From: an uncultured Alphaproteobacteria bacterium | GTDB lineage: Bacteria; Bacteroidota; Ignavibacteria; Palsa-1295 | Reading direction: 5' to 3' | Length of the DNA: 64,000 nt | NCBI GenBank assembly: GCA_964404255.1 | Contig: CAYOJJ010000006.1 | Coordinates: forward strand, 11,567 to 75,566 | Shown here: positions 32,508 to 52,780 of the stretch, one piece after another | How positions within the stretch are numbered: the first letter of the stretch is position 1 | Layout of the letters: every line of letters starts with the position of its first letter | Made by a program: the position numbers and the translations under genes | The notes under the pieces: generated by a model | What the model saw: the letters and a program-made list of their open reading frames with translations, nothing else | Told to the model about the DNA's origin: nothing | The model's database searches: none

Positions 32508-33833
32508 TTATGCGGCGAGCGATTCATCGGCTGCATGCTCAACGATCGGGGTGGCCCGGCCTTCGACGCTATCTCGCGTAACCGTTACTTTCTCGAGCTT
32601 CATATCGTCCGGCATCGAGAACATCAGTTCGGTCAACACTTTTTCCATGATCGAACGCAGCGCTCTCGCACCGGTACCGCGGCGTTGAGCTTCATCGATC
32701 ACGGCTTCGAGGCCATCCTTGCGGAATTCCAGATCCACGCCTTCCATCGCAAAGAGCTTGCGGTATTGCTTAACAAGTGCATTCTTCGGCTCGGTAAGAA
32801 TCTGCATCAGCGCATCGCGGGATAACCCATTCAACGCAGCCAGTACCGGCAAGCGTCCGATAAGCTCAGGGATAAACCCAAACTTTAATAGATCTTCCTG
32901 CTCGACAAACTGATAAACGCTCAGGTTGCCCTCCGTGCCTTTGTCCGGGAAGTTGGCGCCGAACCCGATAGGGTTCTGGTGCAATCGTTTAAGTACGATC
33001 TTCTCTAAGCCATCGAACGCACCGCCAGCTATAAATAAGATGTGCTTGGTATTAATATAAATAAGCGGCTGCTCCGGATGCTTGCGGCCACCTTTCGGGG
33101 GGACGCCCGCTACCGTACCTTCGAGCAGTTTCAACAAGCCCTGCTGTACGCCTTCGCCCGAGACATCTCTTGTAATAGAAGCGCTATCGCTCTTGCGGGA
33201 AATTTTATCGACCTCATCGAGATAGACGATGCCGCGTTCGGCCTTGGAGACGTCGTAATCGGCGGCTTGTAGTAACGACGAGAGAATGGATTCCACATCG
33301 TCGCCTACATAACCTGCTTCCGTAAGCGTAGTGGCATCGGCCACTGCGAACGGCACATCGAGGATGCGTGCGAGGGTGCGGGCTAACAGCGTTTTGCCAG
33401 TACCCGTCGGGCCCATGAGCAGGATATTCGCCTTTTCGATCTCGGTATCTTCGAAACCCTCGACGCCCACGAGCGTTTCGGATTCGATCCGCTTGAAATG
33501 GTTATAGACGGCAACCGAAAGCACCTTCTTGGCTTCGTCCTGGCCGATGACATATTCATCGAGCGCTTTCTTGATGGTGCGCGGAGTGACGTGCTTGATG
33601 CCGGCTTTTCGGACATTGGCACGGGGGGTAAATTGCGGCAAATGCGCGCGAAGCAGCTCCACATTATTAGCGGAGCAGATATCGCAGATATACGCATCGC
33701 CATAAGGGGCGCTGATAAGCGTCGTGACTTCGGTAGCAGGCCGCAAACAGAACGAACAATGCGGCACCGGCGGCTCGGAGCCTCCGGAAGCACTCTGCTT
33801 CGCCCTGCGGGGTCGGTTCTTTTTCTCGTCCAT
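32508..33833 (-). CDS. clpX: ATP-dependent Clp protease ATP-binding subunit ClpX
   Basis: N-terminal C4 zinc finger (CSFC...CDIC), Walker A GPTGTGKT and the overall ClpX architecture. Confidence 0.9.
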
Positions 33834-33915
33834 ATCGGTAATTACAGGTACCTTAGATACCTATAACTATAAACATCCCGGCGTTCCGAGGGGTTGCGGG
33901 GGATAAGGGTAAGAA

Positions 33916-36900
33916 TCAGTTTTTTCGGTTGCTTAAAATGCTACGTTTGCCAGAAATCCAACTTAAAATAAACTCTTTTTGTACATCAGTTAAACTATAT
34001 TCGGGAAGTAAATCATTGTAGAATAAGGTGTCTTTTAAATCGCGTGCTCTTAGTATAGCTGTAAAAGGTCGAGCAATAGAGTTTTCAGATAATATTTGTT
34101 CAATATCGTAACGTCGACGCTTAGTAGATTTATTCTCTGCAATGGTCTCGTATAAAATTAAAAAACAGCATATCGCACCAAAAAGCCCGTCCTCTAAACG
34201 AGTAATATCTATTGATGAAGTAAAAGGCTCAACGCGTTTTTCTAAAAGAGGTGGGAATATATCTACAGAGTGGGGAGAAATTTTTGTTTGAAGAATAATG
34301 ACGCCAAAATCACGTAAAAAAGCATTAAATATTTTTGAATGATGAAAATACTCATTGTCTAACTCATTCAACCGGTCTACAATATATGATGTCATAACAG
34401 AGATAAAGTTTATGTATTGCATCCCAAACCCTAAGCTATTTCCTATTGATTCTGTTACGAATGAGATCCCATGATTGTTTATTGCAAAAGGAAGAGCAAT
34501 AAAATGGTATTTTGTCAATAGATTATAGGTGATAAATGGCGAGTCCTTACTGGTAGTGATCAAATAATCACGGTATTTAGCAAAATACATATCTAATTTT
34601 ACTTGCCAGAATTCAGAGCTTTCTTCATCCGATGTCAGATGATGAAATCTACGAGAAAGCACAATTAATAATTCAATAATCACAATTATTGTGTCTTTCT
34701 TATGAGTTCGTACACTTTTCTCTAATAAATCATCAATAAAATTAGAGAAGTTTTCCCTACAACTTATATCCATTCTTAAAATGGCCGCTATTAGTTGTTC
34801 GCTTTGGTTTATTGGTAGTTTGCCAGAAGAATTCTTTGGCTTATTAAGAATAACTTGCAGGCTTCTAATCAAAAAATAATATGCAGCATTTTGCTGAGCT
34901 AAATCTGGGAGCATGTATTGAAAAGACCTAAAGAGAAATATAATTGTATTCCAAGCTTTGTCTTCATGCAAGGTCTTAGAATAGGATATCAATAAAGTAC
35001 AGAACTTGTTGGCGGCAAATTCTATTTCCTTGCTTCGGATTTGAAAAGCAATTGATGCTACTACGTCCCATTCTTGATGAGCTATTTTAAGTTTTAAGGC
35101 GTCGAAAAGTTTTTGTGGAGTATCGTTCTTTCGAGTGAGATACACCGCTGTAAAATACTCTAGAAAGGTTGCATGCGTAAATAAATATAAATCTTCACCA
35201 GAAGCAGTTGTGCCTTGATCGCAGAAAATCCAAGCTCTTCCTGTGCAAAATTGGATTAATTCATTGGCAACTCTTTCTGCGGCATCTTGACTGCTTTGAT
35301 GAGCAGGGTAATAGTATCGGACGGCTTGTTGAATCAGCTGAGAAGTGGTAACGCCTTTTTTCTGAAAGTCTGTATTAGAGTAAATCCAATACGCCAAATT
35401 TGCTATAATAGGGCGTACTTGATCTTCATATCTAAAATTGACGGGTATGTTTCTTGATTTGTCCCAGTTTTCAAATAATAACTCCGTGCATTTCTTGTAG
35501 ACTTCAGGACGATTCCGAGGAATGTAATTGACTTCTCTATAAATATTGCACATGAGTCCTAACATTAGAGGGTTAGAGCACAAATCATTTACTGTTTCGC
35601 TTTCTTTTAAAAATGATTCAGACTTGAGAGTTTTTTCTGTCTCCGTTAAATCGTCCAGAATAGAGAACCACTTTTTTACATATGAATTAATATCTTCAGA
35701 ATCGAACTCTGAAAGTAAAAATTCTGAAAAAACCTTGCTATCCAACGGTGCTTCGCTGTATCCTATTCTTCTGGATGTGACGAGTACTGGAGTGTGGGGG
35801 TAATTGTTGCAAAATGATTCAACATCGGTTCTAATTTCTTTTCGCTCTGATGTAGCTAAAAGTTCATCTAGGCCATCAAAAATTACTATAGCTTTGCCAC
35901 TGCTCAACAAATATTCAAAAGTATTTTCGGGGCCTGTGTCGGTCATTTGATAACGACTTACAGCTTGAGACTTAATATGTTCAAGAATAGAGTAGCGTCT
36001 ATATTGTTTCCTGTCAGCGCTATATTCTCGGAGGACAACAAGAATAGGAATTCTGTGATTTCTCAGGGTACGAGTTGGATCAGTAGCAGCATATAATGCG
36101 CAGATTTTTTTTGAAAGCGTGGATTTTCCACCCCCGGGGTCACCTAGAATCACAGTGCGATGAATGTTTTCAAAAAACCGATGAAAATTGATTTTTGTAT
36201 TGTCTTTTATTCTTGATTCATGAAAAATTATTTTTGGTGTCACATACAAATCGTCTAGGCGTAATTTGCGGCTAACTTTCGCTTGGAATGGCTCAATTTC
36301 ATCACAACGAATTGCAACAGCCTGGGCATATTTTATAGCATAGGTTTCAATTTTTTTGAAAACAGTTGGATTGATGGTTTTTGAAAGTTTTGTGCACTCA
36401 AGAATTTTATCAAGTTTTTCTGCCAGAATTTTAAATTTAATATTATTTGAGGATTCCATCGCTAGTATATTGCCGTCTAAGATGGCGTCCTGTAAGATTA
36501 TTTCGATTGTCTTTAAAATAAGAGACCATAGCTCATTAGCAACTTTTTGATTGCCTTTCGAAGTGCCAAATTTTTCACTGAAATACTTTAAAAATAATTT
36601 TTTTATAGACCCCAGATTTTCTCTCTGCTCAAGTTTGGCAAGGTCCACAGTAATTATTGCTTGAAAAAGCGAATTGACTTCAGGGGTGTTGATAAATATT
36701 CCAATCTCTTCAATGCTTATGTCCCCTCCCTCTTTTGTTCTCAGTTCAATTAAATTAGTGACTTTAGTTACAATCGAAGATAGTCCTATTTCATGATCTT
36801 TGATCGACCTATGAAGATCTTCGCCGATATAAAATCGCTCCCAAACCTTTTTGGAGATTTTTGGTACCGCGCTTTTTAGGGCAGTAATAGCAATGCTTTG

Positions 36901-36999
36901 TACGATAGATAAAAGAGGAATTGGCATATGCGAAATTAAAAAGGGTGACAAATAAGAATGAATACTTTGGGAATTAAAAAACTTACATCCGCTCCACAC
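33916..36999 (-). CDS. NACHT-family STAND NTPase with uncharacterised N-terminal domain and long C-terminal helical region (putative defence protein)
   Basis: 1027-aa ORF with Walker A ILGDPGGGKSTL and Walker B IVIFDGLDEL (NACHT hhhhDGLDE). A/T-rich codon usage is clearly different from the flanking genes. Confidence 0.7.
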   Translation of the reverse strand: MWSGCKFFNSQSIHSYLSPFLISHMPIPLLSIVQSIAITALKSAVPKISKKVWERFYIGEDLHRSIKDHEIGLSSIVTKVTNLIELRTKEGGDISIEEIGIFINTPEVNSLFQAIITVDLAKLEQRENLGSIKKLFLKYFSEKFGTSKGNQKVANELWSLILKTIEIILQDAILDGNILAMESSNNIKFKILAEKLDKILECTKLSKTINPTVFKKIETYAIKYAQAVAIRCDEIEPFQAKVSRKLRLDDLYVTPKIIFHESRIKDNTKINFHRFFENIHRTVILGDPGGGKSTLSKKICALYAATDPTRTLRNHRIPILVVLREYSADRKQYRRYSILEHIKSQAVSRYQMTDTGPENTFEYLLSSGKAIVIFDGLDELLATSERKEIRTDVESFCNNYPHTPVLVTSRRIGYSEAPLDSKVFSEFLLSEFDSEDINSYVKKWFSILDDLTETEKTLKSESFLKESETVNDLCSNPLMLGLMCNIYREVNYIPRNRPEVYKKCTELLFENWDKSRNIPVNFRYEDQVRPIIANLAYWIYSNTDFQKKGVTTSQLIQQAVRYYYPAHQSSQDAAERVANELIQFCTGRAWIFCDQGTTASGEDLYLFTHATFLEYFTAVYLTRKNDTPQKLFDALKLKIAHQEWDVVASIAFQIRSKEIEFAANKFCTLLISYSKTLHEDKAWNTIIFLFRSFQYMLPDLAQQNAAYYFLIRSLQVILNKPKNSSGKLPINQSEQLIAAILRMDISCRENFSNFIDDLLEKSVRTHKKDTIIVIIELLIVLSRRFHHLTSDEESSEFWQVKLDMYFAKYRDYLITTSKDSPFITYNLLTKYHFIALPFAINNHGISFVTESIGNSLGFGMQYINFISVMTSYIVDRLNELDNEYFHHSKIFNAFLRDFGVIILQTKISPHSVDIFPPLLEKRVEPFTSSIDITRLEDGLFGAICCFLILYETIAENKSTKRRRYDIEQILSENSIARPFTAILRARDLKDTLFYNDLLPEYSLTDVQKEFILSWISGKRSILSNRKN

Positions 37000-37585
37000 A
37001 CATCTGGGCGAAGATGTGGTAGTTGCTTGGGATGCCGCCTACTTCATAGACTGATAGATAGACCTGGCCGTTGAGGTCTTTGCCTACCTGATGGCCGAGG
37101 CAGATCGTAGTGCGTTCTTTTACCGTATAGACTATATCGAAGAGGCTTGGCGTGGTATTCAGCGCTGTAGCCGGGCTGCCGACTGTAATATTATGCGATA
37201 AGGCGGTAGTATCGCTTTCGAATTGCTTTGGGTAGAGCAGGCAATAGCCGGGGTAGTTGTTGCTGTCGTTAGGGACGGGCGGCGCCATGGTAACCTGCGT
37301 GGTGACGAGCGAGTAGCCATTGATGTGGTAGGTACCGGGTTCGAGCGTAACAGAGCCGTCTTTTTCAAGTGTGATGTCCTTTCCTTCGCTTGACATAACG
37401 GTATCGAAGACTCTGCGATTGAGATTATCCTTCATGTGCCTGTTAGAATCTCGCGCAAATTCCGCAACGATAGCATAGGAGCGCGAATGCTCTTTCTTCT
37501 CGGAGCAGCCGGAAAGAACGATGGAAGAAGTAGCAATACTTAAAATAAAAAGAGCGAGGCTCGGAAAACGAACGGCGGTCGGCAT
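36983..37585 (-). CDS. Lipoprotein, hypothetical
   Basis: Lipoprotein signal ...IVLSGCSEKK. Confidence 0.5.
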   Translation of the reverse strand: MPTAVRFPSLALFILSIATSSIVLSGCSEKKEHSRSYAIVAEFARDSNRHMKDNLNRRVFDTVMSSEGKDITLEKDGSVTLEPGTYHINGYSLVTTQVTMAPPVPNDSNNYPGYCLLYPKQFESDTTALSHNITVGSPATALNTTPSLFDIVYTVKERTTICLGHQVGKDLNGQVYLSVYEVGGIPSNYHIFAQMCVERM

Positions 37586-37710
37586 GATGGTAATAGTGAT
37601 TGATGAATGATCTACAAAGATACAAAAAATATTTTGAGATAGGGCTAGCGGCAGGGCATAAATCTGCCCCTGTCGAAACGTTCGATTTTTCCATCGCGTA
37701 GGGTACTGCC

Positions 37711-38103
37711 ATGATTCGAATTCGTACTCAGGTTATTGTCTGGCTGCTGCTCTACTGCTTTTGGGTATGGGTGTCGATGGGGTTTCACCCAACCTTTGAG
37801 ATCGATCTCATCGTCACGGCGCTACTGACTATCTTTTATGCGGCGGCTATCTATATAAACGAGTTATTAGTCTTGCCGCGTCTGGCACCTCAACGAGTAA
37901 CCACATCCTCGATAGCTGCTCAGCTAATAGTACAGGTAGTGCTAACCTTTGCCGTTCTTGGCCTTATTCGCTTAACGTATTGGCAGCTCGGCTATGGCGA
38001 ATATCTTGGTGACTACTGGGAGCATTATTGTATCGACTTATTGGGAATGACGGTGCATGTGATTGCCGCGAGGATACTGGTCTCACAATTGCGAAAAGGC
38101 TAA
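37711..38103 (+). CDS. Hypothetical membrane protein
   Basis: 130 aa with four predicted TM helices. Confidence 0.4.
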   Translation: MIRIRTQVIVWLLLYCFWVWVSMGFHPTFEIDLIVTALLTIFYAAAIYINELLVLPRLAPQRVTTSSIAAQLIVQVVLTFAVLGLIRLTYWQLGYGEYLGDYWEHYCIDLLGMTVHVIAARILVSQLRKG

Positions 38104-38684
38104 TAAGCCTCTGGAAACGAAGGTAATTGTGGAATGAAGTGAATAGCTATAGCCAATTCAATAATAATACAAATAAGTGGACTTGCTATTACTACCATCT
38201 TAACAAACCTAAGGGGACGGATTTTGAAATATTCTATAAGTTGAGAAGTCGAGAGAAGCATAATGCATGAAGCAATTGCAAAGATAGCTGGGTGCACGGT
38301 ATACAAGGCCTGCGCATCATAGGCACGTCCAAGGTAATAATGGTAGGCAGAGTCGTTGTTAATAACCATAAATAATAGACTGACACCAAATAATATCCAA
38401 CTAATTGTCAGAAAGTACTGTCGTGAGAGCAGTGTTGTCGTTTTTGAAATTAGTAATGGGACTGTAAGAATAACTGCCGAAACTAAGGATACTATAATAT
38501 CTATATTCTTATAAAACCCCAAAGCATCGAATGCATATAGTATACCAAAGATAAAAAAGTATTGTAGAGGAAGAGATATAATAGCTCCAACTGCTCGCAT
38601 TCGGATGATAATAGAAAGTAGAAAGAGCAACAGTACCCTCATCAATTGTATTCGTATATTATTGGCTTCACTAAGCGGCACCAC
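38100..38684 (-). CDS. Hypothetical polytopic membrane protein
   Basis: 194 aa with 5-6 TM helices, convergent with the previous gene. Confidence 0.4.
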   Translation of the reverse strand: MVPLSEANNIRIQLMRVLLLFLLSIIIRMRAVGAIISLPLQYFFIFGILYAFDALGFYKNIDIIVSLVSAVILTVPLLISKTTTLLSRQYFLTISWILFGVSLLFMVINNDSAYHYYLGRAYDAQALYTVHPAIFAIASCIMLLSTSQLIEYFKIRPLRFVKMVVIASPLICIIIELAIAIHFIPQLPSFPEAY

Positions 38685-38685
38685 T

Positions 38686-39063
38686 ATGGCCTATAATGAA
38701 AGTCTTGCTTCACGAGTCCGCGATGCGCTTGCTTCGCGTAGCGATGTGGAAGAAAAGAAGATGATGGGCGGGCTCATCTTTATGGTCGATGGCAAGATGT
38801 GTCTCGGTGTGCTTGGCGATGAACTGATGATCCGTTATGATCCCGAGATGAAGGCTGCCTTGATGAAAGAGAAGGGCGTACGCGATACAATTTTTAACGA
38901 CAAGCCGACCAGAGGACTTCTCTTCGTAAGTTTGAAAAACCTGGATTCGGAAAAAGACTTCAAGCGCTGGATAAAATATGCGCTCGATTTTAACCCGAAA
39001 GCCACCGCCAGCAAAAAGAAACCGATCGCTAAGAAACCAACCAAAAAGAAATCAAGATCATGA
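38686..39063 (+). CDS. TfoX N-terminal-domain protein
   Basis: MAYNESLASRVRDAL...EKKMMGGLIFMVDGKM matches the TfoX_N domain, followed by a Lys-rich tail. The start is taken at the internal ATG. Confidence 0.55.
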   Translation: MAYNESLASRVRDALASRSDVEEKKMMGGLIFMVDGKMCLGVLGDELMIRYDPEMKAALMKEKGVRDTIFNDKPTRGLLFVSLKNLDSEKDFKRWIKYALDFNPKATASKKKPIAKKPTKKKSRS

Positions 39064-39554
39064 TAACTGTAACCGATACCTTACTCATCGATTTCAAGCG
39101 CGAAGCTGCTGGTACTAAGCGCTTGCTCGAACGCGTGCCCGAGGATAAATTTACGTGGAAGCCGCATGAAAAATCCACAGCACTCGGCCGGCTTTCGATG
39201 CACGTTTCAGAATTGCCCTGGTGGATCGATGACATCATCACCAAAGGCGAATATAATTTTGCCGACCATCCCTTTAAGCCGAACATCCCAACGACGCTTG
39301 CGCAGGTATTTGCTGAGTTCGAAGCGAAGTATAACCGAACGGTAGAATTGCTTTCCTCGACGAACGATGAAGAGCTTCAGAAACCATGGCGATTAAAATT
39401 AGGCGATAAAGTCATCTCCGAAATGCCGAAATGGGAAGCGATTCGTCAGGTACTAGATCATATTATTCATCATCGCGGCCAGTTAACGGTTTTCCTCCGT
39501 CTAAATAACGTGCCATTGCCGGGCTTATTTGGCCCGACTGCTGACGAACGTTAA
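39060..39554 (+). CDS. DinB/YfiT-family protein
   Basis: HHRGQLTVFLRL is a DinB_2 His-triad region. Confidence 0.65.
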   Translation: MITVTDTLLIDFKREAAGTKRLLERVPEDKFTWKPHEKSTALGRLSMHVSELPWWIDDIITKGEYNFADHPFKPNIPTTLAQVFAEFEAKYNRTVELLSSTNDEELQKPWRLKLGDKVISEMPKWEAIRQVLDHIIHHRGQLTVFLRLNNVPLPGLFGPTADER

Positions 39555-39572
39555 GTAGCTCGTCGATAACGA

Positions 39573-40133
39573 GTGAGGCCACCACGGGAATTACTTGCAT
39601 TACTTGCGCAGGGCGATCGCGAAGCCTTGGGATTGCTCTATGAGTTATTTAAGAATAAAGTTTATAATACTGCGCTCAGCTACCTCCACGATAGCTCGGA
39701 TGCTGAGGAAGTAACACAGGATGTTTTTATAGAGGTCTATCGCTCGGCGGCGAAGTTTGAAGCGCGTTCGGAAGTTAGTACCTGGATCTATAGAATAACG
39801 GTCAATAGATCGCTTGATAAACTCCGTCAGCGTGAGCGCACCAGACGCGGCGGCTTTTTTAAGCGGATGCTTCGCCTGGATTCCGAAGAAGTGAATACAC
39901 AAGCAACAGAATTTAACCACCCCGGCGTAGCACTCGAACAGCGCGAAGATTCACAGCTATTATTCAGCGCGCTCGATACCTTGCCCGATCAGCAAAAGAC
40001 CGCTTTCATCTTAAAGCATCTTGAAGGTCTCTCCCAAAAAGAAGGCGCCGAGATCATGAATATCACCGAAAAAGCCTTCGAATCGCTCTTGCAACGGGCA
40101 AAAACGAATTTGCGAAAAAAACTTTCCGAGTGA
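39573..40133 (+). CDS. RNA polymerase ECF-type sigma factor
   Basis: Sigma70 region 2 (YNTALSYLHDSSDAEEVTQDVFIEVY) and region 4. Confidence 0.8.
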   Translation: MRPPRELLALLAQGDREALGLLYELFKNKVYNTALSYLHDSSDAEEVTQDVFIEVYRSAAKFEARSEVSTWIYRITVNRSLDKLRQRERTRRGGFFKRMLRLDSEEVNTQATEFNHPGVALEQREDSQLLFSALDTLPDQQKTAFILKHLEGLSQKEGAEIMNITEKAFESLLQRAKTNLRKKLSE

Positions 40134-40176
40134 GCGAAGGAAATCTTACAGACCAACGTCAAAACCAATAGAAGCC

Positions 40177-40491
40177 ATGAACAAGCTAAGTAAAGAACGG
40201 GTAGAGCAGATCATCGCCAGCGCGGATAGCATCCAGCAGGCTGAGGCCCCGCCCTTTCTTTTGACAAGGATACAAGCACGGCTTGAAGCCGAACCACTGG
40301 GCGCCGTTGTACCACGCATAAAAGTTGGGTTAGTATTCGGTGCGGCGGCGCTACTGGTAGCCATGAATCTCGGTATCGTATTCAGTGGCGGCGCTTCAAA
40401 GCAAGCAGCTACAATCCAGCCACAGCAGACTTCGCAGAGCGAGAGCGGCGGATATATCGGGCTCAATAGTTACAACCTCGATCTCTACTAA
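40177..40491 (+). CDS. Putative membrane anti-sigma factor
   Basis: 104 aa with a single TM helix, located downstream of the ECF sigma gene. Confidence 0.4.
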   Translation: MNKLSKERVEQIIASADSIQQAEAPPFLLTRIQARLEAEPLGAVVPRIKVGLVFGAAALLVAMNLGIVFSGGASKQAATIQPQQTSQSESGGYIGLNSYNLDLY

Positions 40492-40492
40492 G

Positions 40493-41041
40493 ATGAAACG
40501 CGAAACGCTGTTAACGATCTCGGTTGTAATTCTGCTGCTGCTGAATATAGGGGTACTCTCGTATATGTTTCTCGAGCGGCAGAGTTGCCCACCGCCTCCG
40601 GGGCCAATGCCACCACCTCCGCCACCGGGAGCCATGATGCCACCGCCGATGCGACCGGATATGCTTATTCGGCAGACATTGAAATTGAGCGAAGAGCAGG
40701 ATAAAAAGTATGTCGCTTCTATTGAAGTGCATCATAGCGGCATGGTGCGTCTCGATAGTGAGTACCGCGTCGTTGCCGAAGAATATTTTAAGTTATTGCA
40801 AACGAAGAACAGCACTGCTGCTGCAACCGGCGATTCGCTCGTAAAAAAGCTCGGTGCTATTCAGGCTGAAAAAGCTTCGATTACGTACCGCCATCTCGAA
40901 GAGATCAAGGCGATGTGCAGCGCGGAGCAAGCCGCAAAGTTCGATACCATTATCCCCGAGATTGTTCGGATGCTCCTGATGCCTCCGAATCGGATGCCGC
41001 CGGATCATGGATTTCCCCCACCGCCACCCCGAAGGAAATAA
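40493..41041 (+). CDS. Periplasmic Spy/CpxP-like (LTxxQ-type) protein with Pro-rich segment
   Basis: Signal/TM segment, a PPPPGPMPPPPPPGAMMPPP stretch and a helical C-terminus. The start is taken at the internal ATG 40493. Confidence 0.4.
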   Translation: MKRETLLTISVVILLLLNIGVLSYMFLERQSCPPPPGPMPPPPPPGAMMPPPMRPDMLIRQTLKLSEEQDKKYVASIEVHHSGMVRLDSEYRVVAEEYFKLLQTKNSTAAATGDSLVKKLGAIQAEKASITYRHLEEIKAMCSAEQAAKFDTIIPEIVRMLLMPPNRMPPDHGFPPPPPRRK

Positions 41042-41064
41042 TTACTTTTACCGTCTAAAAGAAT

Positions 41065-41862
41065 ATGACAAGACAGTATACCCTTCGCGCCTTTCGCGGA
41101 CTGCTACTTTCGACTCTCGTTAGTCTTACCCTTGCTTCTTGCGGGAATTCAGATTCGACCTCAAGCGATACTTCTAATAACAACAATACTAATACCGGTA
41201 CAGGCGATTCGCTCGCTATCTATAAAAAGATCTACGGCGCAACCGATATGTATGCCGATGGCGATTATGTGGTAATTAAATCTAAAGGATTACCCGATCA
41301 TAAGAGCCCCTATTACAAGACGACGAAATGGGAGGACTCATTATATGAAGCCTATAATGGGACGAACACTTCCTTCATGCTGGCACCCGGTATTATCGCC
41401 GAACAAAACTATACGTTCCGTATCCCGCTTCACCCGGCAGTAAATACAACCCATAGCTCGACCCCGCTTGGGCCTATTGGTATTTCACTTAATGGTGTGC
41501 CGTTCTTCAATCAGTATGCGGGTAACCATCAGCCGCTTGGTTCGATGGAGTTAAATACGTTCGATCAGCAGAATGGACACCCGACGCCGATGAACTCTTA
41601 CCATTATCATGGAGAAGCCTTTTATCTAATGAAGACCAAAGGCAGCGATGCACTTATGGGCTTCTTGCTCGATGGCTTCCCAGTGTATGGCCCGGTGGAA
41701 AACGGTAAGGAAGTCTCTAACTCAGATCTTGATGCCTATCACGGGCATACCAGTGCAACGGCCGACTATCCGAATGGTATCTACCATTATCATACGACGC
41801 TCGCTGCACCATATATCAACGGAAGTGGCTTCTATGGTACGCCGGGAACGGTCACGCAATAG
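41065..41862 (+). CDS. Lipoprotein with YHYH motifs
   Basis: Lipoprotein signal ...LASCGN, and YHYHGEAF/YHYHTT motifs. Confidence 0.5.
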   Translation: MTRQYTLRAFRGLLLSTLVSLTLASCGNSDSTSSDTSNNNNTNTGTGDSLAIYKKIYGATDMYADGDYVVIKSKGLPDHKSPYYKTTKWEDSLYEAYNGTNTSFMLAPGIIAEQNYTFRIPLHPAVNTTHSSTPLGPIGISLNGVPFFNQYAGNHQPLGSMELNTFDQQNGHPTPMNSYHYHGEAFYLMKTKGSDALMGFLLDGFPVYGPVENGKEVSNSDLDAYHGHTSATADYPNGIYHYHTTLAAPYINGSGFYGTPGTVTQ

Positions 41863-42511
41863 AAGCCTATACATCGTCGGTGCGGCCTCGGCCCTTGTTT
41901 ATCTGTCTGTCACGGGATGCAACCCAAAGCCGAAGCCGTCACCGATTGATGTAACTGCCACTAATGAAGTAACTGCTACTACTGAAGTAGCTCCTATTGC
42001 AATACCGAATACTACTATCGATCGCGAAGATTCAAGCATAGAACTTCGCAGAGGTCTTCTTCTCTATAGTGGTAAGCCATTCTCCGGCTATGCAGTGGGC
42101 CGTTATACAGGCGGCGATACAGCTTCCATCCATTCTTTTATGAATGGCAAAGAGGAAGGCACAAGCCGCGAATGGTATCCCAATCATCAGCTAAAAGAGA
42201 TTCGTACATTTTCCAATGGCAAGAAGATTGGCATACACACCGGCTACTGGAGCAACGGTACAAAGCGCTTCGAGTATCACTTTGCAATGGATGTGTATAA
42301 CGGCGAAGTGAAAGAGTGGTATGCCGATGGCAAGCCATATCTGGTAAAGCACTATCTCAACGGCCAGGAGAATGGATTGCAAACAGTCTATTATGCCGAT
42401 GGACGCTTGCAGGCGAACTACGAAGCCAAGGATGGAAGAAATTATGGGAATACGGGATATAGAAACTGTGAAAGTCCGCGCAAGAAGTTTGCTGCTGCCG
42501 CTGCTCGGTAG
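41834..42511 (+). CDS. MORN-repeat (YwqK-like) lipoprotein
   Basis: Repeated GKxxGxxxxWYxNGxxxxxxxYxNG units. The start is uncertain because the long ORF overlaps the previous gene. Confidence 0.5.
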   Translation: MVRRERSRNRSLYIVGAASALVYLSVTGCNPKPKPSPIDVTATNEVTATTEVAPIAIPNTTIDREDSSIELRRGLLLYSGKPFSGYAVGRYTGGDTASIHSFMNGKEEGTSREWYPNHQLKEIRTFSNGKKIGIHTGYWSNGTKRFEYHFAMDVYNGEVKEWYADGKPYLVKHYLNGQENGLQTVYYADGRLQANYEAKDGRNYGNTGYRNCESPRKKFAAAAAR

Positions 42512-43118
42512 TTTGTTGCTGGTATTAGGTTGCAAGCAGGAGCATAAGTACTCGAAGTTGCCGTATTACAACACTCCAGATTTTACACCACTCTGGGATT
42601 CTGCTGTCTCTGTTGATACACTCCATCAGATCGGCAAGTTTAGTTTTAGCGATCAGAGCGGTGCTGCCGTTACCGAGGCTGCGTATGCTAATAAGATCTT
42701 TGTCGCTAATTTCTTTTTTACCACTTGCGCCGGGATTTGCCCGCGAATGACAAATAACCTTTCTGATGTGGCGAAGTCCTTCAAAGCAAATCCCGATGTG
42801 CGTTTCGCTTCGTTCTCAGTGATGCCGGAAAGCGATAGTGTTGCGGCTCTTAAGTTCTATGCAGCGGCGAATAACATCTCAGCAGAGCAATGGCATTTAC
42901 TCACCGGCAATAAGAATGACTTGTATCATCTGGCGCGGCAATCCTTCTTTGTTGAAGAAGAAGCCGGTTTTAATAAAGACTCTTCCGATTTTCTTCACAC
43001 CGAGCATTTAGTATTAGTCGATAAGCACGGCCATATCCGCGGCCTCTACGACGGTACGTTGCCGTTAGAGACTGAACGCCTGACGGCTGACATCAAAACC
43101 CTGCTTGCCGAATCGTAA
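42444..43118 (+). CDS. SCO1/SenC copper chaperone (thioredoxin fold)
   Basis: FFFTTCAGICP is the CxxxCP motif. The start is uncertain and the gene overlaps the MORN gene by ~68 nt. Confidence 0.7.
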   Translation: MGIRDIETVKVRARSLLLPLLGSLLLVLGCKQEHKYSKLPYYNTPDFTPLWDSAVSVDTLHQIGKFSFSDQSGAAVTEAAYANKIFVANFFFTTCAGICPRMTNNLSDVAKSFKANPDVRFASFSVMPESDSVAALKFYAAANNISAEQWHLLTGNKNDLYHLARQSFFVEEEAGFNKDSSDFLHTEHLVLVDKHGHIRGLYDGTLPLETERLTADIKTLLAES

Positions 43119-43127
43119 AGACATCTC

Positions 43128-44003
43128 GTGTCTTATATTTGTAGAGACCATTACTCTACAATGAACTTAAATACTATTAAGATACTGTTACTTGCGCTCC
43201 TACTGCCACTGGTAGGTGCTAATACCATGGCTAAAAGCCAGAAGGTATGGTACCAGCTTGAGGGCAAAGGTACGCGCACGATTGTGTTGCTTCACGGAGC
43301 CTGCATCAATAGTTCGTACTGGAGCAATCAAGTGGCTCACCTAAAAGACAAGTACATGATCCTGACGATCGATCATGCCGGTCATGGCAAATCGAAGGAT
43401 ATGTCCGGGCCATACACACTTGAGCGTTTTGCAAACGATGCGGTTGGCATTATTAAGAGCTTAAAACTCGATAGTATTATTCTCGTGGGGCATTCGATGT
43501 CCGGCGATATAAGCCTGCACATTCATCATGCCTTAAAGGGCAAGGTGCTTGGCATTATCGGCATAGATAATTTTAAGGGCCTCGGTGCCGAGATGCCTCC
43601 AGAGCAAAAAAAGCAGATGGATGGATTTATGAAGCTAATCGATAAAGATTTTGCTGGCAGTATCCCCATGGCCACTTCATTTTTATTTTCTTCAACTACA
43701 GATACTGCTGTTAAGGCTCGGGTGAATAACGATGTGCTTGAAGGCGGGAAGACGCTCTTTCTATCTATATTAAAATCTATAGGTAAGCAAAGTGCTTTTG
43801 AACGCAGCGAAGCAAAGCAACTGAAAGTGCCGTTATTCCTGGTTAATAGCGATAAAGATCCCACCGATGAAAGTTTGTTAAAGAAATACTGTGGCGCTTC
43901 TTATAAGATCTGGCAAATTCATAATAGCGGCCATTATCCGATGATCGAACAACCAACGGAGTTTAACCGACTTCTTGACGAAGCACTCGCCTCAATTAAA
44001 TAA
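43128..44003 (+). CDS. Secreted alpha/beta-hydrolase
   Basis: Signal peptide, HGACINSSYW and the nucleophile motif GHSMSG. Confidence 0.7.
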   Translation: MSYICRDHYSTMNLNTIKILLLALLLPLVGANTMAKSQKVWYQLEGKGTRTIVLLHGACINSSYWSNQVAHLKDKYMILTIDHAGHGKSKDMSGPYTLERFANDAVGIIKSLKLDSIILVGHSMSGDISLHIHHALKGKVLGIIGIDNFKGLGAEMPPEQKKQMDGFMKLIDKDFAGSIPMATSFLFSSTTDTAVKARVNNDVLEGGKTLFLSILKSIGKQSAFERSEAKQLKVPLFLVNSDKDPTDESLLKKYCGASYKIWQIHNSGHYPMIEQPTEFNRLLDEALASIK

Positions 44004-44007
44004 TAGT

Positions 44008-44637
44008 ATGACTATGCCATCTGCCGATAAACGCATCGACGCTTATATTGCAAAGTCAAAGGAATTTGCTCAGCCAATCTTAACGCATTTCCGAGCGCTC
44101 ATTCATAAGACCTGCCCCGATGTCGAAGAGACCGTAAAGTGGGGAATGCCCTTCTTTACTTATGAAGGTGATAACCTCTGTATGATGGCCGCTTTCAAAG
44201 AGCATTGTGTGCTGGGTTTCTGGAAGGCCAAATTAATGAGTAATAAAAAGCTCATGGAGAATGCTTCATCGGAAGCGGCGATGGGTCACCTCGGGAAGAT
44301 CATGAGCATGAAAGATCTGCCGCCAAATAAAGAGTTGGTGGCCGATATTAAAGAAGCGATGAAGCTCAATGAAGATGGCATTAAGCTTCCGTCAAATAAA
44401 AAAGTCAGCGAAGAAAAGAAGAAAGCGCTCAAGACACCGGCTTATCTTACTGCCGCCTTAAAACGTAATAAAAAAGCATGGGCGGTATTCGATGCCTTTG
44501 CCTACTCGCATAAGAAGGAATATATCCAGTGGATCGAAGAGGCAAAGACCGAAGCGACTCGTGAAAAAAGAATTGCCCAAGCTATCGAATGGATAAGCGA
44601 GGGCAAAGGACGTAATTGGAAATATCAGAAAAAGTAA
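44008..44637 (+). CDS. DUF1801 + YdeI/OmpD-associated domain protein
   Basis: The N-terminus (IDAYIAKSKEFAQPILTHFRALI...VKWGMPFFTY) and C-terminus (YIQWIEEAKTEATREKRIAQAIEWI) match the two families. Confidence 0.6.
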   Translation: MTMPSADKRIDAYIAKSKEFAQPILTHFRALIHKTCPDVEETVKWGMPFFTYEGDNLCMMAAFKEHCVLGFWKAKLMSNKKLMENASSEAAMGHLGKIMSMKDLPPNKELVADIKEAMKLNEDGIKLPSNKKVSEEKKKALKTPAYLTAALKRNKKAWAVFDAFAYSHKKEYIQWIEEAKTEATREKRIAQAIEWISEGKGRNWKYQKK

Positions 44638-48057: not shown

Positions 48058-48906
48058 ATGAATTTTGATCAATTTAGGGACGAAGATCCCTTAGCAAACC
48101 ATGAACGACTTCGTTCCAATTTCGTCAGGCAATTCGTACAACACTACAACACGCCATCCAGGACGCGGACAGCATATAATAAAGCAACGCCAAAACGCAT
48201 AGTACAATTTTGGGATAATCTTGATCAATTACCTCAGGATGTTAAAGAATGTATGGATTCTTGGAGGGTACTTGAACGGTCTGGATTTGAATTTCAGATT
48301 TTTGACGAAACGACGGCAAGAGAGTTTATCAAGGCTCAATTAGGCTCAAGATATGGAAAAGCATTTGATAAGTGTTATCATCCTTCAATGAAGTCCGACT
48401 ATTTCCGGTATAGCTACATTTTCGTAGAGGGTGGTTTCTATATTGACGCAGATGATGTCTACCATGGAGCTGTGATCGATCATCTATTTGCTGATGGGAG
48501 ATTGAAACTTCAACCATTCTGTTATGATATTGCAACAAATCAAATGGTTTCACCTTCATCTTTTGTGAATCAGGGAGCAAACAAAACGAGTTGGATTTTT
48601 TATTTCAATACAACACCATTAATCGCAAGTCCCAAACACCCTATTGTTGAACGGGCACTGCTTAACGCTACTACATATCTTGAGCAAGTATCAGAAGGAG
48701 AATTACCAGAAGTTCAGGCTTCCACTGGTCCAGGCAACCTCACCAGATCTATTTTTGAACTGCTCGCTGATCAAGCCTGTCCTGAGGAAGAATTGCTTAT
48801 TTTACATGATTGGGAGAAGATATCTACTAGTAAATGGCCGCTTAGTTATCGAAATGACAAAAGGAATTGGAGGCTTTCTAATCAGCAAGCCTATCAAACT
48901 TCATAA
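48058..48906 (+). CDS. Glycosyltransferase family 32-like (DXD sugar-binding region)
   Basis: RIVQFWDNL ... SMKSDYFRYSYIFVEGGFYIDADDV matches the GT32/Gly_transf_sug signature. The gene is AT-rich. Confidence 0.65.
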   Translation: MNFDQFRDEDPLANHERLRSNFVRQFVQHYNTPSRTRTAYNKATPKRIVQFWDNLDQLPQDVKECMDSWRVLERSGFEFQIFDETTAREFIKAQLGSRYGKAFDKCYHPSMKSDYFRYSYIFVEGGFYIDADDVYHGAVIDHLFADGRLKLQPFCYDIATNQMVSPSSFVNQGANKTSWIFYFNTTPLIASPKHPIVERALLNATTYLEQVSEGELPEVQASTGPGNLTRSIFELLADQACPEEELLILHDWEKISTSKWPLSYRNDKRNWRLSNQQAYQTS

Positions 48907-48920
48907 CAAAAATAGAAGCC

Positions 48921-51149
48921 ATGAACTTACTACGCCCTCAACTGGCCATTATCAGTTATGCTTTTCGAACGTGGCTCTCTTTTCGCAGGCTTCTACATAA
49001 ACGAAGGTGTCAAGCATTTGGTATTAAACGTAACGGAAAGCGCTTGCAAATTGAGAAGATCTATGTTATCAACCTTAACCGTGAACCTGGACGTTGGGCC
49101 AGGATGAAGCAAGAGCTCAAACGAATATTTGACTCATCAGGAGTTGAACTCCTAAATTTATCTGTGCGGCATGTTGCTATTGATGCTAATGAGTTTTCAC
49201 GAAATCCGTCTAAAGATGCTCAGATCGATCCTTTTTACACCCTTGAAGATCAGTTATTTGTAGAACCCCAACCGCTGGTTCTTCCAACCCGCCTCGAACT
49301 AAATGAACCGATTCGAATGAGTCGAGCTGAGTGTGCCGTTGCGCAATCACATATCAGTGTATGGAAACAGGTTGCTGAGAGTAATAACGAATACGTACTC
49401 ATACTTGAGGATGATGTATGGTTTCATTTAAACTTCGCAAGCGATTTAGATAAGGTGTGGAATGATCTAGAAAATGATTTGCAGGGTAAATTTGACATTC
49501 TTTATTTGTCTTATCTTGAAGTAAAGCATGGTGCGCCAAAAACTATTTTGTCAAGGAATGTATTTAGACCAATGCGTGGACTTTGGCACCTGTCTGGGTA
49601 TGTGCTTTCTAGAAATGGCGCTGAAAAACTTCTAGGTCTTCTCCCATGTCGTGGCCCGATTGATCTTTGGATAAATCAGCAGTTCAAAACATTGGATGTG
49701 CTTGCAGCTAAACATTCTCTTATTAGCCAACGCAGGGACACTAAATCTAGCAATTCGTATTCAATACTTCCCACACTTACTAAGATAGGGGCAATCACTA
49801 GTGAGGGGGCAGCATTATTTAATATCCGGCCAGCTGAGCAGCCCGTATTTGCTTTTGGCCCTGAAGGTACTGGCCAGTCATCGCTTGCAATGGCCTTGTC
49901 TATGCTAGGATACAGGTGCTGTAGTGATTTCCAAGATATACCTTTAGCTGAAATGGATAATCTTCTCAATGGAAGAGCGGAGAGAGTTTTCAATGCATAC
50001 GTGAATATTGGCTCTTTGTATTCAAAAGTTACGGAGCTCCTGATTCTATACCCAAAGGCAAAGTTTATTATTACGGCAGATAAAAAAGCCGTTTCAGACG
50101 AGATGTTCTTGAAAATGGAAGATAGTCTGAGAAATGCCGATCTGGCTATACTTTATTCAGAAAAATTGAATACGTGGCAAACCATTTGCGAACACTTAAG
50201 GTGTGCGCCACCTAAATGCTCTTACCCTATGGTGAAGGATATTGGTCAAAGACCAATTCTCAACACAAAGAATGAACACAAACCGGCTATAAAAACAAAG
50301 ATTCCTAAACGTGATAGCTCACCATGGGTCATTGAGTCCCATAAGTTATGGCGAGGTATCAGTCTTGTCGAGACAAGGAGTTGGCAGGTTGATACTGGAA
50401 CATTAGTCAAAATCACCGACTCTTTGGAATCTCATGATGCAAAACTGTGGCACCTAAGGAGAGATACTTTCACCGATAACTTGGCATTGTTTCGCCCGTC
50501 AAATGTCGAGTTTAAATCAGGTATAGGAGCTGTGCTTAACGTAAAAAAGGAATCCGTCGGCGTTCGAGATTACACTGCTGCATCGTTATCCAGCCAAAAC
50601 CAATACTTATTCGGAAAATTCGAAGCAACCATCAAAGCATCCAATGTTCCAGGAGTAGTCACTGGACTATTTCTCTACCGCAACTCCCCCCGACAGGAAA
50701 TAGATATCGAAATTACGGGTAATCGGCCAAACCGGCTCTTGGTTAATGTATTTTACAACCCAGGTACTGAAGGAGCAAACTTTGATTATGGTTATAGAGG
50801 AGCTCCGACTTATATTGAATTAGGGTTTGATGCATCTAAGGAAAGTCATCGCTTTCAAATTGAATGGGATCCGTACGAAATTAGATGGTTGGTTGACGAC
50901 AACCTCGTTCATAAACGAACTGTATGGAATCCGACACCTATTCCAGACCTTCCTATGACGTTCCATGTTAATAATTGGGTCTCTCGTTCTGCACAGCTTG
51001 CTGGGCGAATTAACAAACGACATCTCCCAGCTACCTCCATAGTTAGTGAAGTCACACTAACGGCAAATGTCGTCATTCAAAAATCCGAGGACAATGAACC
51101 GCAGTTGCAGACCCTTACTAATGTTAACCCAAGTCAGTTTATTCAATGA
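48921..51149 (+). CDS. Multidomain glycan-modifying enzyme: N-terminal GT25-like glycosyltransferase, central P-loop/sulfotransferase-like region (tentative), C-terminal GH16 glycoside hydrolase/transglycosylase
   Basis: The N-terminus (EKIYVINLNREPGRWARMKQEL ... YVLILEDDVWFH) is GT25-like. The middle has FAFGPEGTGQSSL. The C-terminus (QEIDIEITGN ... FQIEWDPYEIRWLVDDNLVHKRT) carries the GH16 ExDxE catalytic motif. Confidence 0.6.
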   Translation: MNLLRPQLAIISYAFRTWLSFRRLLHKRRCQAFGIKRNGKRLQIEKIYVINLNREPGRWARMKQELKRIFDSSGVELLNLSVRHVAIDANEFSRNPSKDAQIDPFYTLEDQLFVEPQPLVLPTRLELNEPIRMSRAECAVAQSHISVWKQVAESNNEYVLILEDDVWFHLNFASDLDKVWNDLENDLQGKFDILYLSYLEVKHGAPKTILSRNVFRPMRGLWHLSGYVLSRNGAEKLLGLLPCRGPIDLWINQQFKTLDVLAAKHSLISQRRDTKSSNSYSILPTLTKIGAITSEGAALFNIRPAEQPVFAFGPEGTGQSSLAMALSMLGYRCCSDFQDIPLAEMDNLLNGRAERVFNAYVNIGSLYSKVTELLILYPKAKFIITADKKAVSDEMFLKMEDSLRNADLAILYSEKLNTWQTICEHLRCAPPKCSYPMVKDIGQRPILNTKNEHKPAIKTKIPKRDSSPWVIESHKLWRGISLVETRSWQVDTGTLVKITDSLESHDAKLWHLRRDTFTDNLALFRPSNVEFKSGIGAVLNVKKESVGVRDYTAASLSSQNQYLFGKFEATIKASNVPGVVTGLFLYRNSPRQEIDIEITGNRPNRLLVNVFYNPGTEGANFDYGYRGAPTYIELGFDASKESHRFQIEWDPYEIRWLVDDNLVHKRTVWNPTPIPDLPMTFHVNNWVSRSAQLAGRINKRHLPATSIVSEVTLTANVVIQKSEDNEPQLQTLTNVNPSQFIQ

Positions 51150-52780
51150 AAATTATATCATTTAATCCCGGTCATGATGGCGCTTTTGTTTACCTCGAAG
51201 ACGGGCAGTTGATTGCCTCGATTGAAGCTGAGAAAAACTCTCGTTATCGTCACTCGCCGCTTTCTGTGCCAGATGCGTTCAGCATTCTAGGTGAACTTAG
51301 AGAGGTGCCGGATGTGCTTTGTAGAGGAGGGTGGTGGCCAGGCAATTCTCTTTCGTCTGAGCAGCGCTCTCTTGCTGGATACTATGGTTTAAGCAACAGT
51401 GATATTATCACCGGTCAAAAACGCCTTTTAGGAAAGAATGTTGATTATTTCTCCTCTTCGCACGAACGATCCCATCTTCTTTGCGCCTTTGGTATGTCAG
51501 ATTTACCAAAGGGAACCCCCTGCTACGCTCTACTTTGGGAAGGCGTGATCGGTTCGTTTTACGAAATTGATGCTGAGTTAAATTTGACAAAACTCGCGGA
51601 TGTTATGCCTGAGCCAGGACATCGATATGCCTTGCTTTACGGCTTGGCTGACCCAACCTTTGATAAAAAAAATGCAGAATTCTCGCGATTTTCCGACGCA
51701 GGGAAGTTAATGGCATTAACTTCATTTTCGAAGAGAAGCAAACCTACGGATGAGGAGGAAAAGATAATAGAGTTTCTAATGCAAGACACTCTTCATCTAA
51801 AGGCATACGAGTGCGAAGCCTTAAGACATTATTGTCACTATAATGTAGGATTGGATGATGTTGAGTTTCGTAACTTCACAGGTATAGTAAGCGATAGAAT
51901 ATTTGATCGTTTTTATCAGTATGCCAAATTGAAGATGAAGAGAAACATGCCGCTGCTCATTACTGGTGGGTGTGGTCTTAATTGTGATTGGAATTCGAAA
52001 TGGAGCGAGGCTAATCTCTTTTCGGAAATATTTGTACCACCTGTCGCCAATGATTCAGGGTCAGCTATTGGCACGGCGATTGATGCCCAATTCCATTTCA
52101 CTGGCAATCCTAAGATAAATTGGAGTGTCTACTCTGGTCTTGAATTTAATGCTGAGGGCCCATTTGATGCATCATTATTTGACGAGTACGAAACAAGTTA
52201 TACAATGATTTCTGAAATGCTTGCAAATGATTTGATTGTCGGATGGGTAGATGGGAAATATGAAATTGGCCCTCGTGCCTTGGGAAATCGTTCAATTCTT
52301 GCTTCACCCTTTCATGAAAGCACTAGAATTCGGCTAAACGAGATTAAGCAGCGCGAACAGTTTCGCCCAATTGCACCTGTTTGCTTAGAAGAAGATGCTC
52401 CAAGATGGTTTAATTGCAATCAGTCTAGCCCATATATGCTTTACACGAAGATTGTTTCTACAGATGCTCTCGCTGCGGTGACCCACGTCAATGGTACTGC
52501 ACGTATACAAACGGTATCTAATAAAACCAACAGCCACTTATATAAATTGCTTATTGCCTTCAAGGCACTCACTGGCTATGGGGTTTTGTGTAATACTTCT
52601 TTGAATTTCAAGGGGAGAGGATTCATAAACAATATTGCTGATCTCGCAACATATACAATAGACCACAATTTGGATGGATTTGTAATTGCAGAAAAATGCT
52701 ATATGTTAAGGAGCTCTAAAAGTTATCAGGCCTATCTTAGTATCAAAAATTCAGTACGGCACAGGGAACGCCAAAATTGA
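51146..52780 (+). CDS. Carbamoyltransferase, NodU/CmcH family
   Basis: MKIISFNPGHDGAFVYLEDGQLIASIEAEKNSRYRHS is a carbamoyltransferase N-terminal signature; 544 aa. ATGA overlap with the previous gene. Confidence 0.75.
   Translation: MKIISFNPGHDGAFVYLEDGQLIASIEAEKNSRYRHSPLSVPDAFSILGELREVPDVLCRGGWWPGNSLSSEQRSLAGYYGLSNSDIITGQKRLLGKNVDYFSSSHERSHLLCAFGMSDLPKGTPCYALLWEGVIGSFYEIDAELNLTKLADVMPEPGHRYALLYGLADPTFDKKNAEFSRFSDAGKLMALTSFSKRSKPTDEEEKIIEFLMQDTLHLKAYECEALRHYCHYNVGLDDVEFRNFTGIVSDRIFDRFYQYAKLKMKRNMPLLITGGCGLNCDWNSKWSEANLFSEIFVPPVANDSGSAIGTAIDAQFHFTGNPKINWSVYSGLEFNAEGPFDASLFDEYETSYTMISEMLANDLIVGWVDGKYEIGPRALGNRSILASPFHESTRIRLNEIKQREQFRPIAPVCLEEDAPRWFNCNQSSPYMLYTKIVSTDALAAVTHVNGTARIQTVSNKTNSHLYKLLIAFKALTGYGVLCNTSLNFKGRGFINNIADLATYTIDHNLDGFVIAEKCYMLRSSKSYQAYLSIKNSVRHRERQN

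Follow-up and report, generated by a model that had tools for sequence, protein, structure and literature searches.

What occupies the sharply bounded low-GC tract directly upstream of clpX in an uncultured bacterium deposited as Alphaproteobacteria (GTDB lineage Bacteroidota, Ignavibacteria, Palsa-1295), and what might it do there? The tract lies within a stretch of 64,000 nucleotides (nt), here called the window (assembly GCA_964404255.1, contig CAYOJJ010000006.1, positions 11,567 to 75,566 of the forward strand), and its 3.09 kb are filled by one intact open reading frame (ORF). The ORF encodes a protein with a NACHT-type STAND nucleoside triphosphatase (NTPase) core, and on balance we favour reading it as an abortive-infection NLR that is encoded by one horizontally acquired gene and has a membrane-perturbing effector. 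Bacterial NLR-like NACHT defence is in itself well known; what is new is an uncharacterised, widespread protein family whose two end domains are unannotated.

The gene, its start codon and its composition

The gene and its immediate surroundings are laid out as follows, in window coordinates.

33916..36927, minus strand: NACHT/NLR-like gene, 1003 codons and the stop codon (33916-33918), preferred start ATG 36927
36928..36999, minus strand: AT-rich leader of 55 nt (36928-36982) and in-frame GTG extension to 36999, from the sequence and from homologues without the extension
33903..36989, no strand: low-GC tract (GC 0.35) with sharp compositional bounds, comprising one gene and its 5' leader, from change-point analysis and windowed GC
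32508..33833, minus strand: clpX, conserved anchor directly downstream across an 82-nt gap (Pfam AAA_2 and zf-C4_ClpX)
36983..37585, minus strand: upstream lipoprotein gene of 200 amino acids (aa), lipobox LSGC, native-like GC of 0.51 (ORF; no Pfam match)

The ORF list counts the minus-strand ORF (33916..36999) as 1027 aa from a GTG codon. An earlier reading made from the sequence only had accepted this start, which overlaps the lipoprotein gene by 17 nt, and had raised co-transcription of the two genes, with an internal Met at about 36927 as the alternative. The alternative proved right: the N-termini of 106 full-length homologues align at ATG 36927, none of them carries the 24-aa extension, and the identical protein of the public collection (P0001) is 1003 aa long. 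Judged from these alignments, translation almost certainly starts at ATG 36927 (1003 aa) and not at GTG 36999, and the 24-aa GTG extension up to 36999 is probably untranslated. The 17-nt overlap is thus an artefact of taking the longest ORF, and the co-transcription idea, built on the wrong start codon, falls with it; a 55-nt AT-rich spacer separates the NACHT gene from the lipoprotein gene.

Composition sets the gene apart from its surroundings, as had been noted by eye. Windowed GC runs at 0.31-0.39 over the NACHT gene against 0.45-0.55 in the flanks, the tract as a whole stands at 0.35 against a flanking GC of 0.49-0.54, and both the GC of the gene (0.352; z = -3.4) and its GC at third codon positions (GC3; 0.300, z = -2.6) are the minimum among the 46 window ORFs of >=150 aa. 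The A/T-rich run that had first drawn attention is located at about 33961-34000. Maximum likelihood places the change points at 33903 and 36989, within about 15 nt of the stop codons of the NACHT gene and the lipoprotein gene, respectively. A chimeric assembly was considered as the source of the GC trough and rejected, as host-like sequence and intact genes resume on both sides within about 15 nt. Scans around the gene for direct and inverted repeats, tRNA genes, promoters and terminators yielded nothing above chance; the edges of the insert are free of target-site duplications and of genes for integrases or transposases, and the sole tRNA gene is 10 kb off.

The same gene is missing from the corresponding position in related genomes. 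ClpX orthologues are 60-88 % identical and all derive from metagenome-assembled genomes of Candidatus Kapaibacterium, Ignavibacteriota or Bacteroidota, and no relative of the NACHT protein is encoded at any of the 80 fetched clpX loci, about 22 of which belong to Kapaibacterium/Ignavibacteriota relatives. The lipoprotein gene gave no tblastn match in 23 related loci. A search of 5.8 billion proteins placed the closest non-self homologue at 40 % identity. Foreign composition, absence from related clpX loci and the distance of the nearest homologue together point to horizontal acquisition of the NACHT gene, in agreement with what had been proposed for it.

Domain architecture of the NACHT protein

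The domains and motifs of the protein, all encoded on the minus strand and numbered from ATG 36927, are given below from the N- to the C-terminus.

36283..36927, minus strand: residues 1-215, family-specific all-helical N-terminal domain, putative effector (AlphaFold2 model and profile search)
36859..36927, minus strand: residues 1-23 (MPIPLLSIVQSIAITALKSAVPK), hydrophobic N-terminal helix with a degenerate form of the family MDP/MEP...G motif (hydropathy and alignment)
36160..36282, minus strand: residues 216-256, pre-NACHT linker with a conserved ...LYV.P... strand motif (family alignment)
35662..36159, minus strand: residues 257-422, NACHT P-loop NTPase domain (Pfam PF05729 and invariant columns)
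36118-36144, minus strand: residues 262-270, Walker A GDPGGGKST (invariant family columns)
35860-35889, minus strand: Walker B IVIFDGLDEL, with the DGLDE signature at residues 351-355 (invariant family columns)
34888..35661, minus strand: residues 423-680, highly conserved helical/winged-helix region (55-66 % identity to homologues; per-block conservation 0.6-0.9)
35152-35184, minus strand: LFTHATFLEYF, likely the histidine motif of the winged-helix domain (weak profile match to NLRP3)
33919..34887, minus strand: residues 681-1003, fast-diverging C-terminal alpha-solenoid, putative sensor, with a conserved tail helix (W990)

The NACHT signature consists of a Walker A motif of the form GxxxxGK[ST] and a Walker B motif followed by D[GAS]hDE (10.1101/2022.07.19.500537). 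Both Walker motifs are present, as the sequence-only reading had stated, and the Pfam NACHT model PF05729 matches with 48.7-48.8 bits (cut-off 26.7) over profile positions 2-165 of 167, corresponding to residues 281-446 in the 1027-aa reading and residues 257-422 in the 1003-aa numbering. The window protein keeps the invariant columns G262-S269, D351-L356 and T384-R386 (the TSR sensor), and every other invariant column of the NACHT and winged-helix regions is likewise retained. The latter region includes a conserved LYxFTHxTFLEYF motif (H585), which the family profile aligns weakly to NLRP3 (E 0.37-0.87). The Pfam match and the structure models thus bear out the earlier description of a NACHT-type STAND NTPase of three parts, with a helical N-terminal domain and a C-terminal alpha-solenoid modelled on either side of the NACHT domain.

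About 580 aa in total lie C-terminal of the NACHT domain, and the C-terminal solenoid is modelled with confidence as 21 helices resembling HEAT/ARM proteins. This stretch had been described as repetitive and helical, which holds at the level of the fold, where an alpha-solenoid is seen, but not at that of the sequence, where neither repeats nor a TPR or HEAT Pfam match could be found. Helical-repeat sensors occur in most Avs/STAND defence proteins (10.64898/2026.01.04.697583), and the predicted solenoid of the window protein matches these. In two family members the C-terminus is extended, by a second P-loop ATPase-like region in P0163 (1296 aa) and by a receiver-like domain in P0189 (1194 aa), and it thus tolerates domain accretion. 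Identity among members reaches 55-66 % over the NACHT domain (residues 257-422) and the helical/winged-helix region (residues 423-680) combined, 25-32 % over the helical N-terminal domain (residues 1-215) and about 23 % over the C-terminal region (residues 681-1003). A conserved centre with fast-diverging ends is the pattern described by Kibby et al. for antiphage bNACHT proteins (10.1101/2022.07.19.500537).

Distribution and genomic contexts of the family

More than 1500 proteins match the window protein, nearly all of about 1000 aa, and members are found in cyanobacteria, Chloroflexota, Planctomycetota, Sericytochromatia, on an actinomycete plasmid and on a contig with archaeal-looking genes. 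The plasmid matches are NACHT cores, with the exception of one 986-aa protein of a Kitasatospora plasmid, which is likely a distant family member, and phage genomes yielded distant NACHT cores only. The member on the archaeal-looking contig (L089:1206-4175; contig of 433 kb, GC 0.28) has neighbours with the archaeal-type Pfam families Connectase, MJ0788 and MTF_ORF3, and the family may reach archaea.

In seven homologue neighbourhoods, drawn from different phyla, the gene stands alone with no conserved partner gene, which is consistent with a one-gene system. Family genes fall below their flanks in GC in all eight contexts examined. In the seven contexts other than the window (L081, L083, L084, L086, L087, L088 and L089) the difference ranges from 0.01 to 0.24, with the gene in L083 at 0.343 against 0.581. 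The low GC of the family genes suggests either repeated recent transfer or an intrinsic low-GC bias of the gene family.

The N-terminal domain and its motif

The AlphaFold2 model of the N-terminal domain comprises ten helices, with a predicted local distance difference test (pLDDT) score of 70 that rises above 85 in the core (residues 70-150). A profile search of 1.84 billion sequences recovered 558 cluster representatives (50 % identity clusters) from many bacterial phyla and from the contig with archaeal-looking genes, and in all of them the domain begins at about residue 1; the matches are proteins of about 1000 aa, or truncated and frameshifted copies that run into the pre-NACHT motif. As it is found solely at the N-terminus of this architecture or in truncated copies of it, the domain is specific to the family. 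Neither the N-terminal domain nor the C-terminal solenoid has a match in Pfam, PADLOC, NCBIfam or the PDB, and P-loop models are the only Pfam families matched by 47 family members. The fold comparison of the two terminal models was made against the PDB, where the N-terminal model found no informative match. When the PDB was searched by sequence the protein was without a match, the family profile gave P-loop noise and the weak NLRP3 motif, and a short NACHT protein of Klebsiella, used as a bridge to the bNACHT11 structure, was also without a match. The earlier view of an uncharacterised N-terminal domain therefore stands as far as database matches are concerned, but the N-terminus common in the family, which resembles the MDPIT and MEPIS motifs of known cell-death modules, provides a lead.

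These motifs have been described in two settings. The N-terminal extension of bNACHT11 has the consensus MDPIT, with D2A or P3A abolishing defence and activation leading to plasmolysis (10.1101/2024.12.17.629029). In the Bab/Bell/Hell proteins a MEPIS motif is situated on hydrophobic helix 1 and G11K abolishes function, and a MEPIS-type motif has been noted also in Avast2 and bNACHT02/11/23 (10.1101/2024.11.07.622273). Among 169 full-length family members, 43 start with M[DE]P, a further 26 have [DE]P inside the first 14 residues, and 36 have M[DE] without the proline. The family consensus N-terminus is MDPNIQNIILG-V-ANGLT, and the Gly at position 11 occurs in 53 of the 85 family sequences starting with M[DE]. 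Residues 4-23 are hydrophobic, the family mean on the Kyte-Doolittle scale being 1.07 there and -0.24 over the remainder of the domain, and the window protein compares closely (mean 1.06 over residues 4-23; best 19-residue window 1.64). The helix formed by residues 1-23 is on this basis a putative membrane-active element. It is possible, if rather doubtful, that the family N-terminal domain represents an unnamed sheathed form of the MDPIT/MEPIS cell-death module, in which a helical sheath would hold the hydrophobic, Gly-centred first helix. This suggestion draws on a short motif and on hydropathy, and no profile or fold test supports homology.

Two further motifs, LSAHEAKS..R (positions 154-164) and RH..I.PP (positions 207-214), are near-invariant in the family and altered in the window protein and in its nearest relative, P0002. 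An enzymatic N-terminal effector, to which the SAHEAKS motif had given rise, was rejected, as no catalytic fold is matched and both the window copy and its nearest relative lack the His. The same two motifs are left unexplained by a membrane-active domain, and adaptor N-termini are frequent in bacterial NACHT proteins, so that the protein might alternatively be an NLR-like sensor whose N-terminal helical domain, once oligomerised, recruits or activates a separately encoded effector of the host or of a mobile element, much like Death-like or effector-associated domains, or binds nucleic acid or a polymerase. We consider this quite unlikely: no neighbour gene is conserved across the seven contexts, the N-terminal domain occurs neither in another architecture nor as a verified stand-alone protein (its short matches being truncated copies), and an adaptor role would explain neither the conserved MDP start nor the hydrophobic first helix.

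The clpX-upstream slot in related genomes

The variable part of the locus extends beyond the NACHT gene.

33834..44007, no strand: segment of about 10 kb that varies by comparison with L005 and L006 (tblastn synteny; Pfam)

In the related loci L005 and L006 a homologue of the window gene at 44008-44637 is found directly upstream of clpX, and window positions 33834-44007 thus constitute a variable segment. Besides the NACHT gene, which is its main low-GC gene and sits at its edge, the segment holds mostly accessory genes of native-like GC (TfoX_N, DinB, an extracytoplasmic function (ECF) sigma factor, YHYH, SCO1 and a hydrolase). The description of the gene as a single-gene insertion therefore holds by composition, for the gene and its 55-nt leader, but has to be qualified by this position at the margin of a larger variable region.

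The slot upstream of clpX is put to other uses in the relatives. In coordinates relative to the clpX of each locus, it holds a low-GC pair of McrB-like AAA_5 and McrC genes in L001 (L001:10-2759), whose ClpX is 88 % identical, a 622-aa TIR-TPR protein in L004 (L004:6025-7893) and a PIN toxin in L007 (L007:5413-5763). In L005 the methylase and specificity subunits of a type I restriction-modification system (L005:1519-4811) lie upstream of that position by a few kb, with three conserved genes in between and with homologues of the window genes 47010 and 45109 on either side. The clpX-upstream position in Kapaibacterium-like genomes thus appears to be a variable hotspot of defence genes, and the McrBC, TIR-TPR and PIN genes in this slot lend indirect support to a defence function of the NACHT gene. 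The slot could be mined for further defence systems.

A role outside immunity has to be weighed against this. The gene might encode a NACHT STAND signalling ATPase, serving in stress or developmental signalling or in kin recognition, with its low GC marking it merely as accessory; functions of this type have been suggested for numerous NACHT paralogues of multicellular bacteria, among them cyanobacteria and Chloroflexota. Many members of the family come from cyanobacteria, Chloroflexota and Planctomycetota, groups known for their wealth of NACHT paralogues, the neighbourhoods of the homologues consist mostly of housekeeping genes, and a match in defence libraries is absent. We nevertheless regard such a role as unlikely, given the patchy, single-copy distribution of the family and its foreign composition in every host examined, the fast divergence of both ends around a conserved core, the use of the same chromosomal slot by McrBC, TIR and PIN genes in relatives, and an N-terminal start that resembles a cell-death motif.

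Proposed mode of action and comparison with known systems

As an abortive-infection NLR, the protein would rest as an autoinhibited monomer bound to adenosine diphosphate, with its fast-evolving C-terminal HEAT/ARM-like solenoid poised to bind a phage-derived protein or to respond to a phage-induced change. Binding would free the NACHT switch, permitting nucleotide exchange and oligomerisation into a wheel, which would bring the N-terminal helical domains into a cluster. The first hydrophobic helix, once freed, could then perturb the inner membrane (by plasmolysis or pore-like death), and the cell would die before the phage cycle is completed. The antiphage function, the sensing of a ligand by the C-terminus, the oligomerisation and the membrane-directed activity of the effector are all steps that we infer.

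Close parallels in layout and logic are found in bNACHT11 and the other clade 14 proteins (bNACHT01/02/12/23), which are likewise NACHT proteins encoded by single genes, conserved in the NTPase core and diverging fast in the C-terminal sensor. For bNACHT11 the predicted sequence of sensing, oligomerisation, N-terminal clustering and cell death is the same, and its MDPIT resembles the MDP start common in the family, although the window copy (MPIPLLS) lacks D2. The two differ in build, however, as bNACHT11 combines an N-terminal extension of about 45 aa with a short SNaCT sensor, whereas the family described here has a folded helical domain of 215 aa and a C-terminal solenoid of at least 320 aa. 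A short NACHT protein of a Klebsiella plasmid, comparable to bNACHT11, has 639 aa and 22 % identity to the window protein in the NACHT domain. The Bell/Babybell/HeLo/Hell domains (Bab-Agp, HET-S, HELLP) are small all-helical N-terminal modules with a hydrophobic first helix, an M-[DE]-P-type start and a functionally important central Gly (Bab G11), features that the family consensus fits; the window copy keeps the hydrophobic helix but lacks the acidic residue and the Gly. The domain described here is about twice as long and fused directly to NACHT, in contrast to signalling through amyloid motifs, and none of the profile and fold comparisons made connected it with HeLo, Hell, Bell, MLKL-4HB or coiled-coil (CC) domains.

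Avs10/Erebus (EruA)/Hypnos/bNACHT64, a NACHT-domain antiphage protein with a helical sensor, gave the sole match to a named defence family, but the EruA profiles are about 1300 positions long; EruA is Erebus, also called Avs10 or bNACHT64 (10.64898/2026.01.04.697583). The window protein belongs neither to clade 14 nor to Erebus/Avs10, nor to any of the PADLOC families. By description, the same layout of a helical N-terminus, NACHT and a helical C-terminus is found in the NNH-NACHT-NCH architectures, and NNH6 is in use as a domain label in the literature. These architectures (N-terminal helical/C-terminal helical) were reportedly catalogued by Kibby, Aravind and colleagues. The Pfam copy used presumably contains NNH and NCH models, and 47 family members are without any Pfam match outside the P-loop region.

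Several findings weigh against an abortive-infection NLR with a membrane-perturbing effector. The protein falls in no named bNACHT, AVAST or Erebus family of PADLOC or NCBIfam: PADLOC-DB 2.0.0, including its Avs profiles (AVAST, Avs1-5), gave no match at E up to 0.1, and the sole NCBIfam match, EruA/Erebus NF058535, reached 32.4 bits against a cut-off of 1000, with its best stretch limited to 64 residues of the winged-helix region (447-510). Neither a recognisable defence island nor known defence genes surround any of the seven homologues, and the viral contigs of IMG/VR yielded no relatives of the family. The N-terminal model is of moderate confidence, and with pLDDT values of 48-60 over residues 1-50 it does not establish that a sheath cups helix 1. 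No more than about 40 % of family members begin with a clear [DE]P motif, the Pfam models HeLo and Helo_like_N are matched neither by the window protein nor by 47 members, and an hhalign comparison of the N-terminal profile with the short Klebsiella plasmid NACHT protein, in which the first 28 residues are in register, is not significant (E 0.09). The window copy itself starts with MPIPLLS, with no Asp or Glu at position 2 and Ser in place of Gly at position 11, and departs from near-invariant family residues (H157M, H208C, P214F).

With the acidic residue 2 and the central Gly absent, the effector of the window copy may be altered or weakened. The copy could even be a disabled remnant of a defence gene, still an ORF but with an effector that no longer works, as might be read from the loss of both motif residues, from the departures at near-invariant N-terminal positions (R89/Q90 in addition to the three above) and from an identity of <=40 % to any other member. 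Such decay seems very unlikely to us, as the 3-kb ORF is intact in DNA of 65 % A+T and all invariant NACHT and winged-helix columns are kept. Moreover, P0002 has most of the N-terminal departures too (including L at 157, C at 208 and F at 214), which argues for a sub-branch that is viable and against decay at random.

The immune receptors of animals, plants and fungi have their prokaryotic counterparts in bacterial NLR-like proteins, and how the effector ends of the latter kill the cell is understood for few. A large family of such proteins is missed entirely by current defence-finding libraries. For the genome itself the gene would be an ordinary acquisition, a single horizontally acquired accessory immune gene. 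Should the N-terminal domain prove to be an extended membrane module of the MDPIT/MEPIS type, the death motif would reach well beyond the enterobacterial clade 14 proteins, and structural work on the route from clustering to plasmolysis would have a folded domain at its disposal in place of a disordered 45-residue tail. The bare extension of 45 aa in bNACHT11 would then be connected with the Bell/HeLo domains known from bacteria, fungi and plants, and the family of about 1000-aa proteins would constitute a widespread, unrecognised class of membrane-killing NLRs.

Other accessory regions of the window

Two further regions of the variable segment were observed. A 180-aa multi-pass membrane ORF (38100-38642, minus strand) has low GC (0.363; GC3 0.315) and no Pfam match, and might represent another small foreign insertion within the segment. 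The plus-strand region 39573-41041 contains an ECF sigma factor gene, a small ORF for a putative anti-sigma protein and a gene for a Metal_resist-like protein rich in proline, with YHYH and SCO1/SenC genes after them, and looks like a copper or envelope-stress module.

Beyond the segment, a plus-strand cluster of three genes with lower GC (48058-52780; GC 0.40-0.42) encodes glycosyltransferases (including a GT25/GH16 fusion) and a carbamoyltransferase, and is probably a variable surface-polysaccharide module. Further along the plus strand, an ORF of 2065 aa (56880-63077) contains repeated segments with 31-37 % identity to several parts of L018, and probably encodes a large repetitive surface protein.

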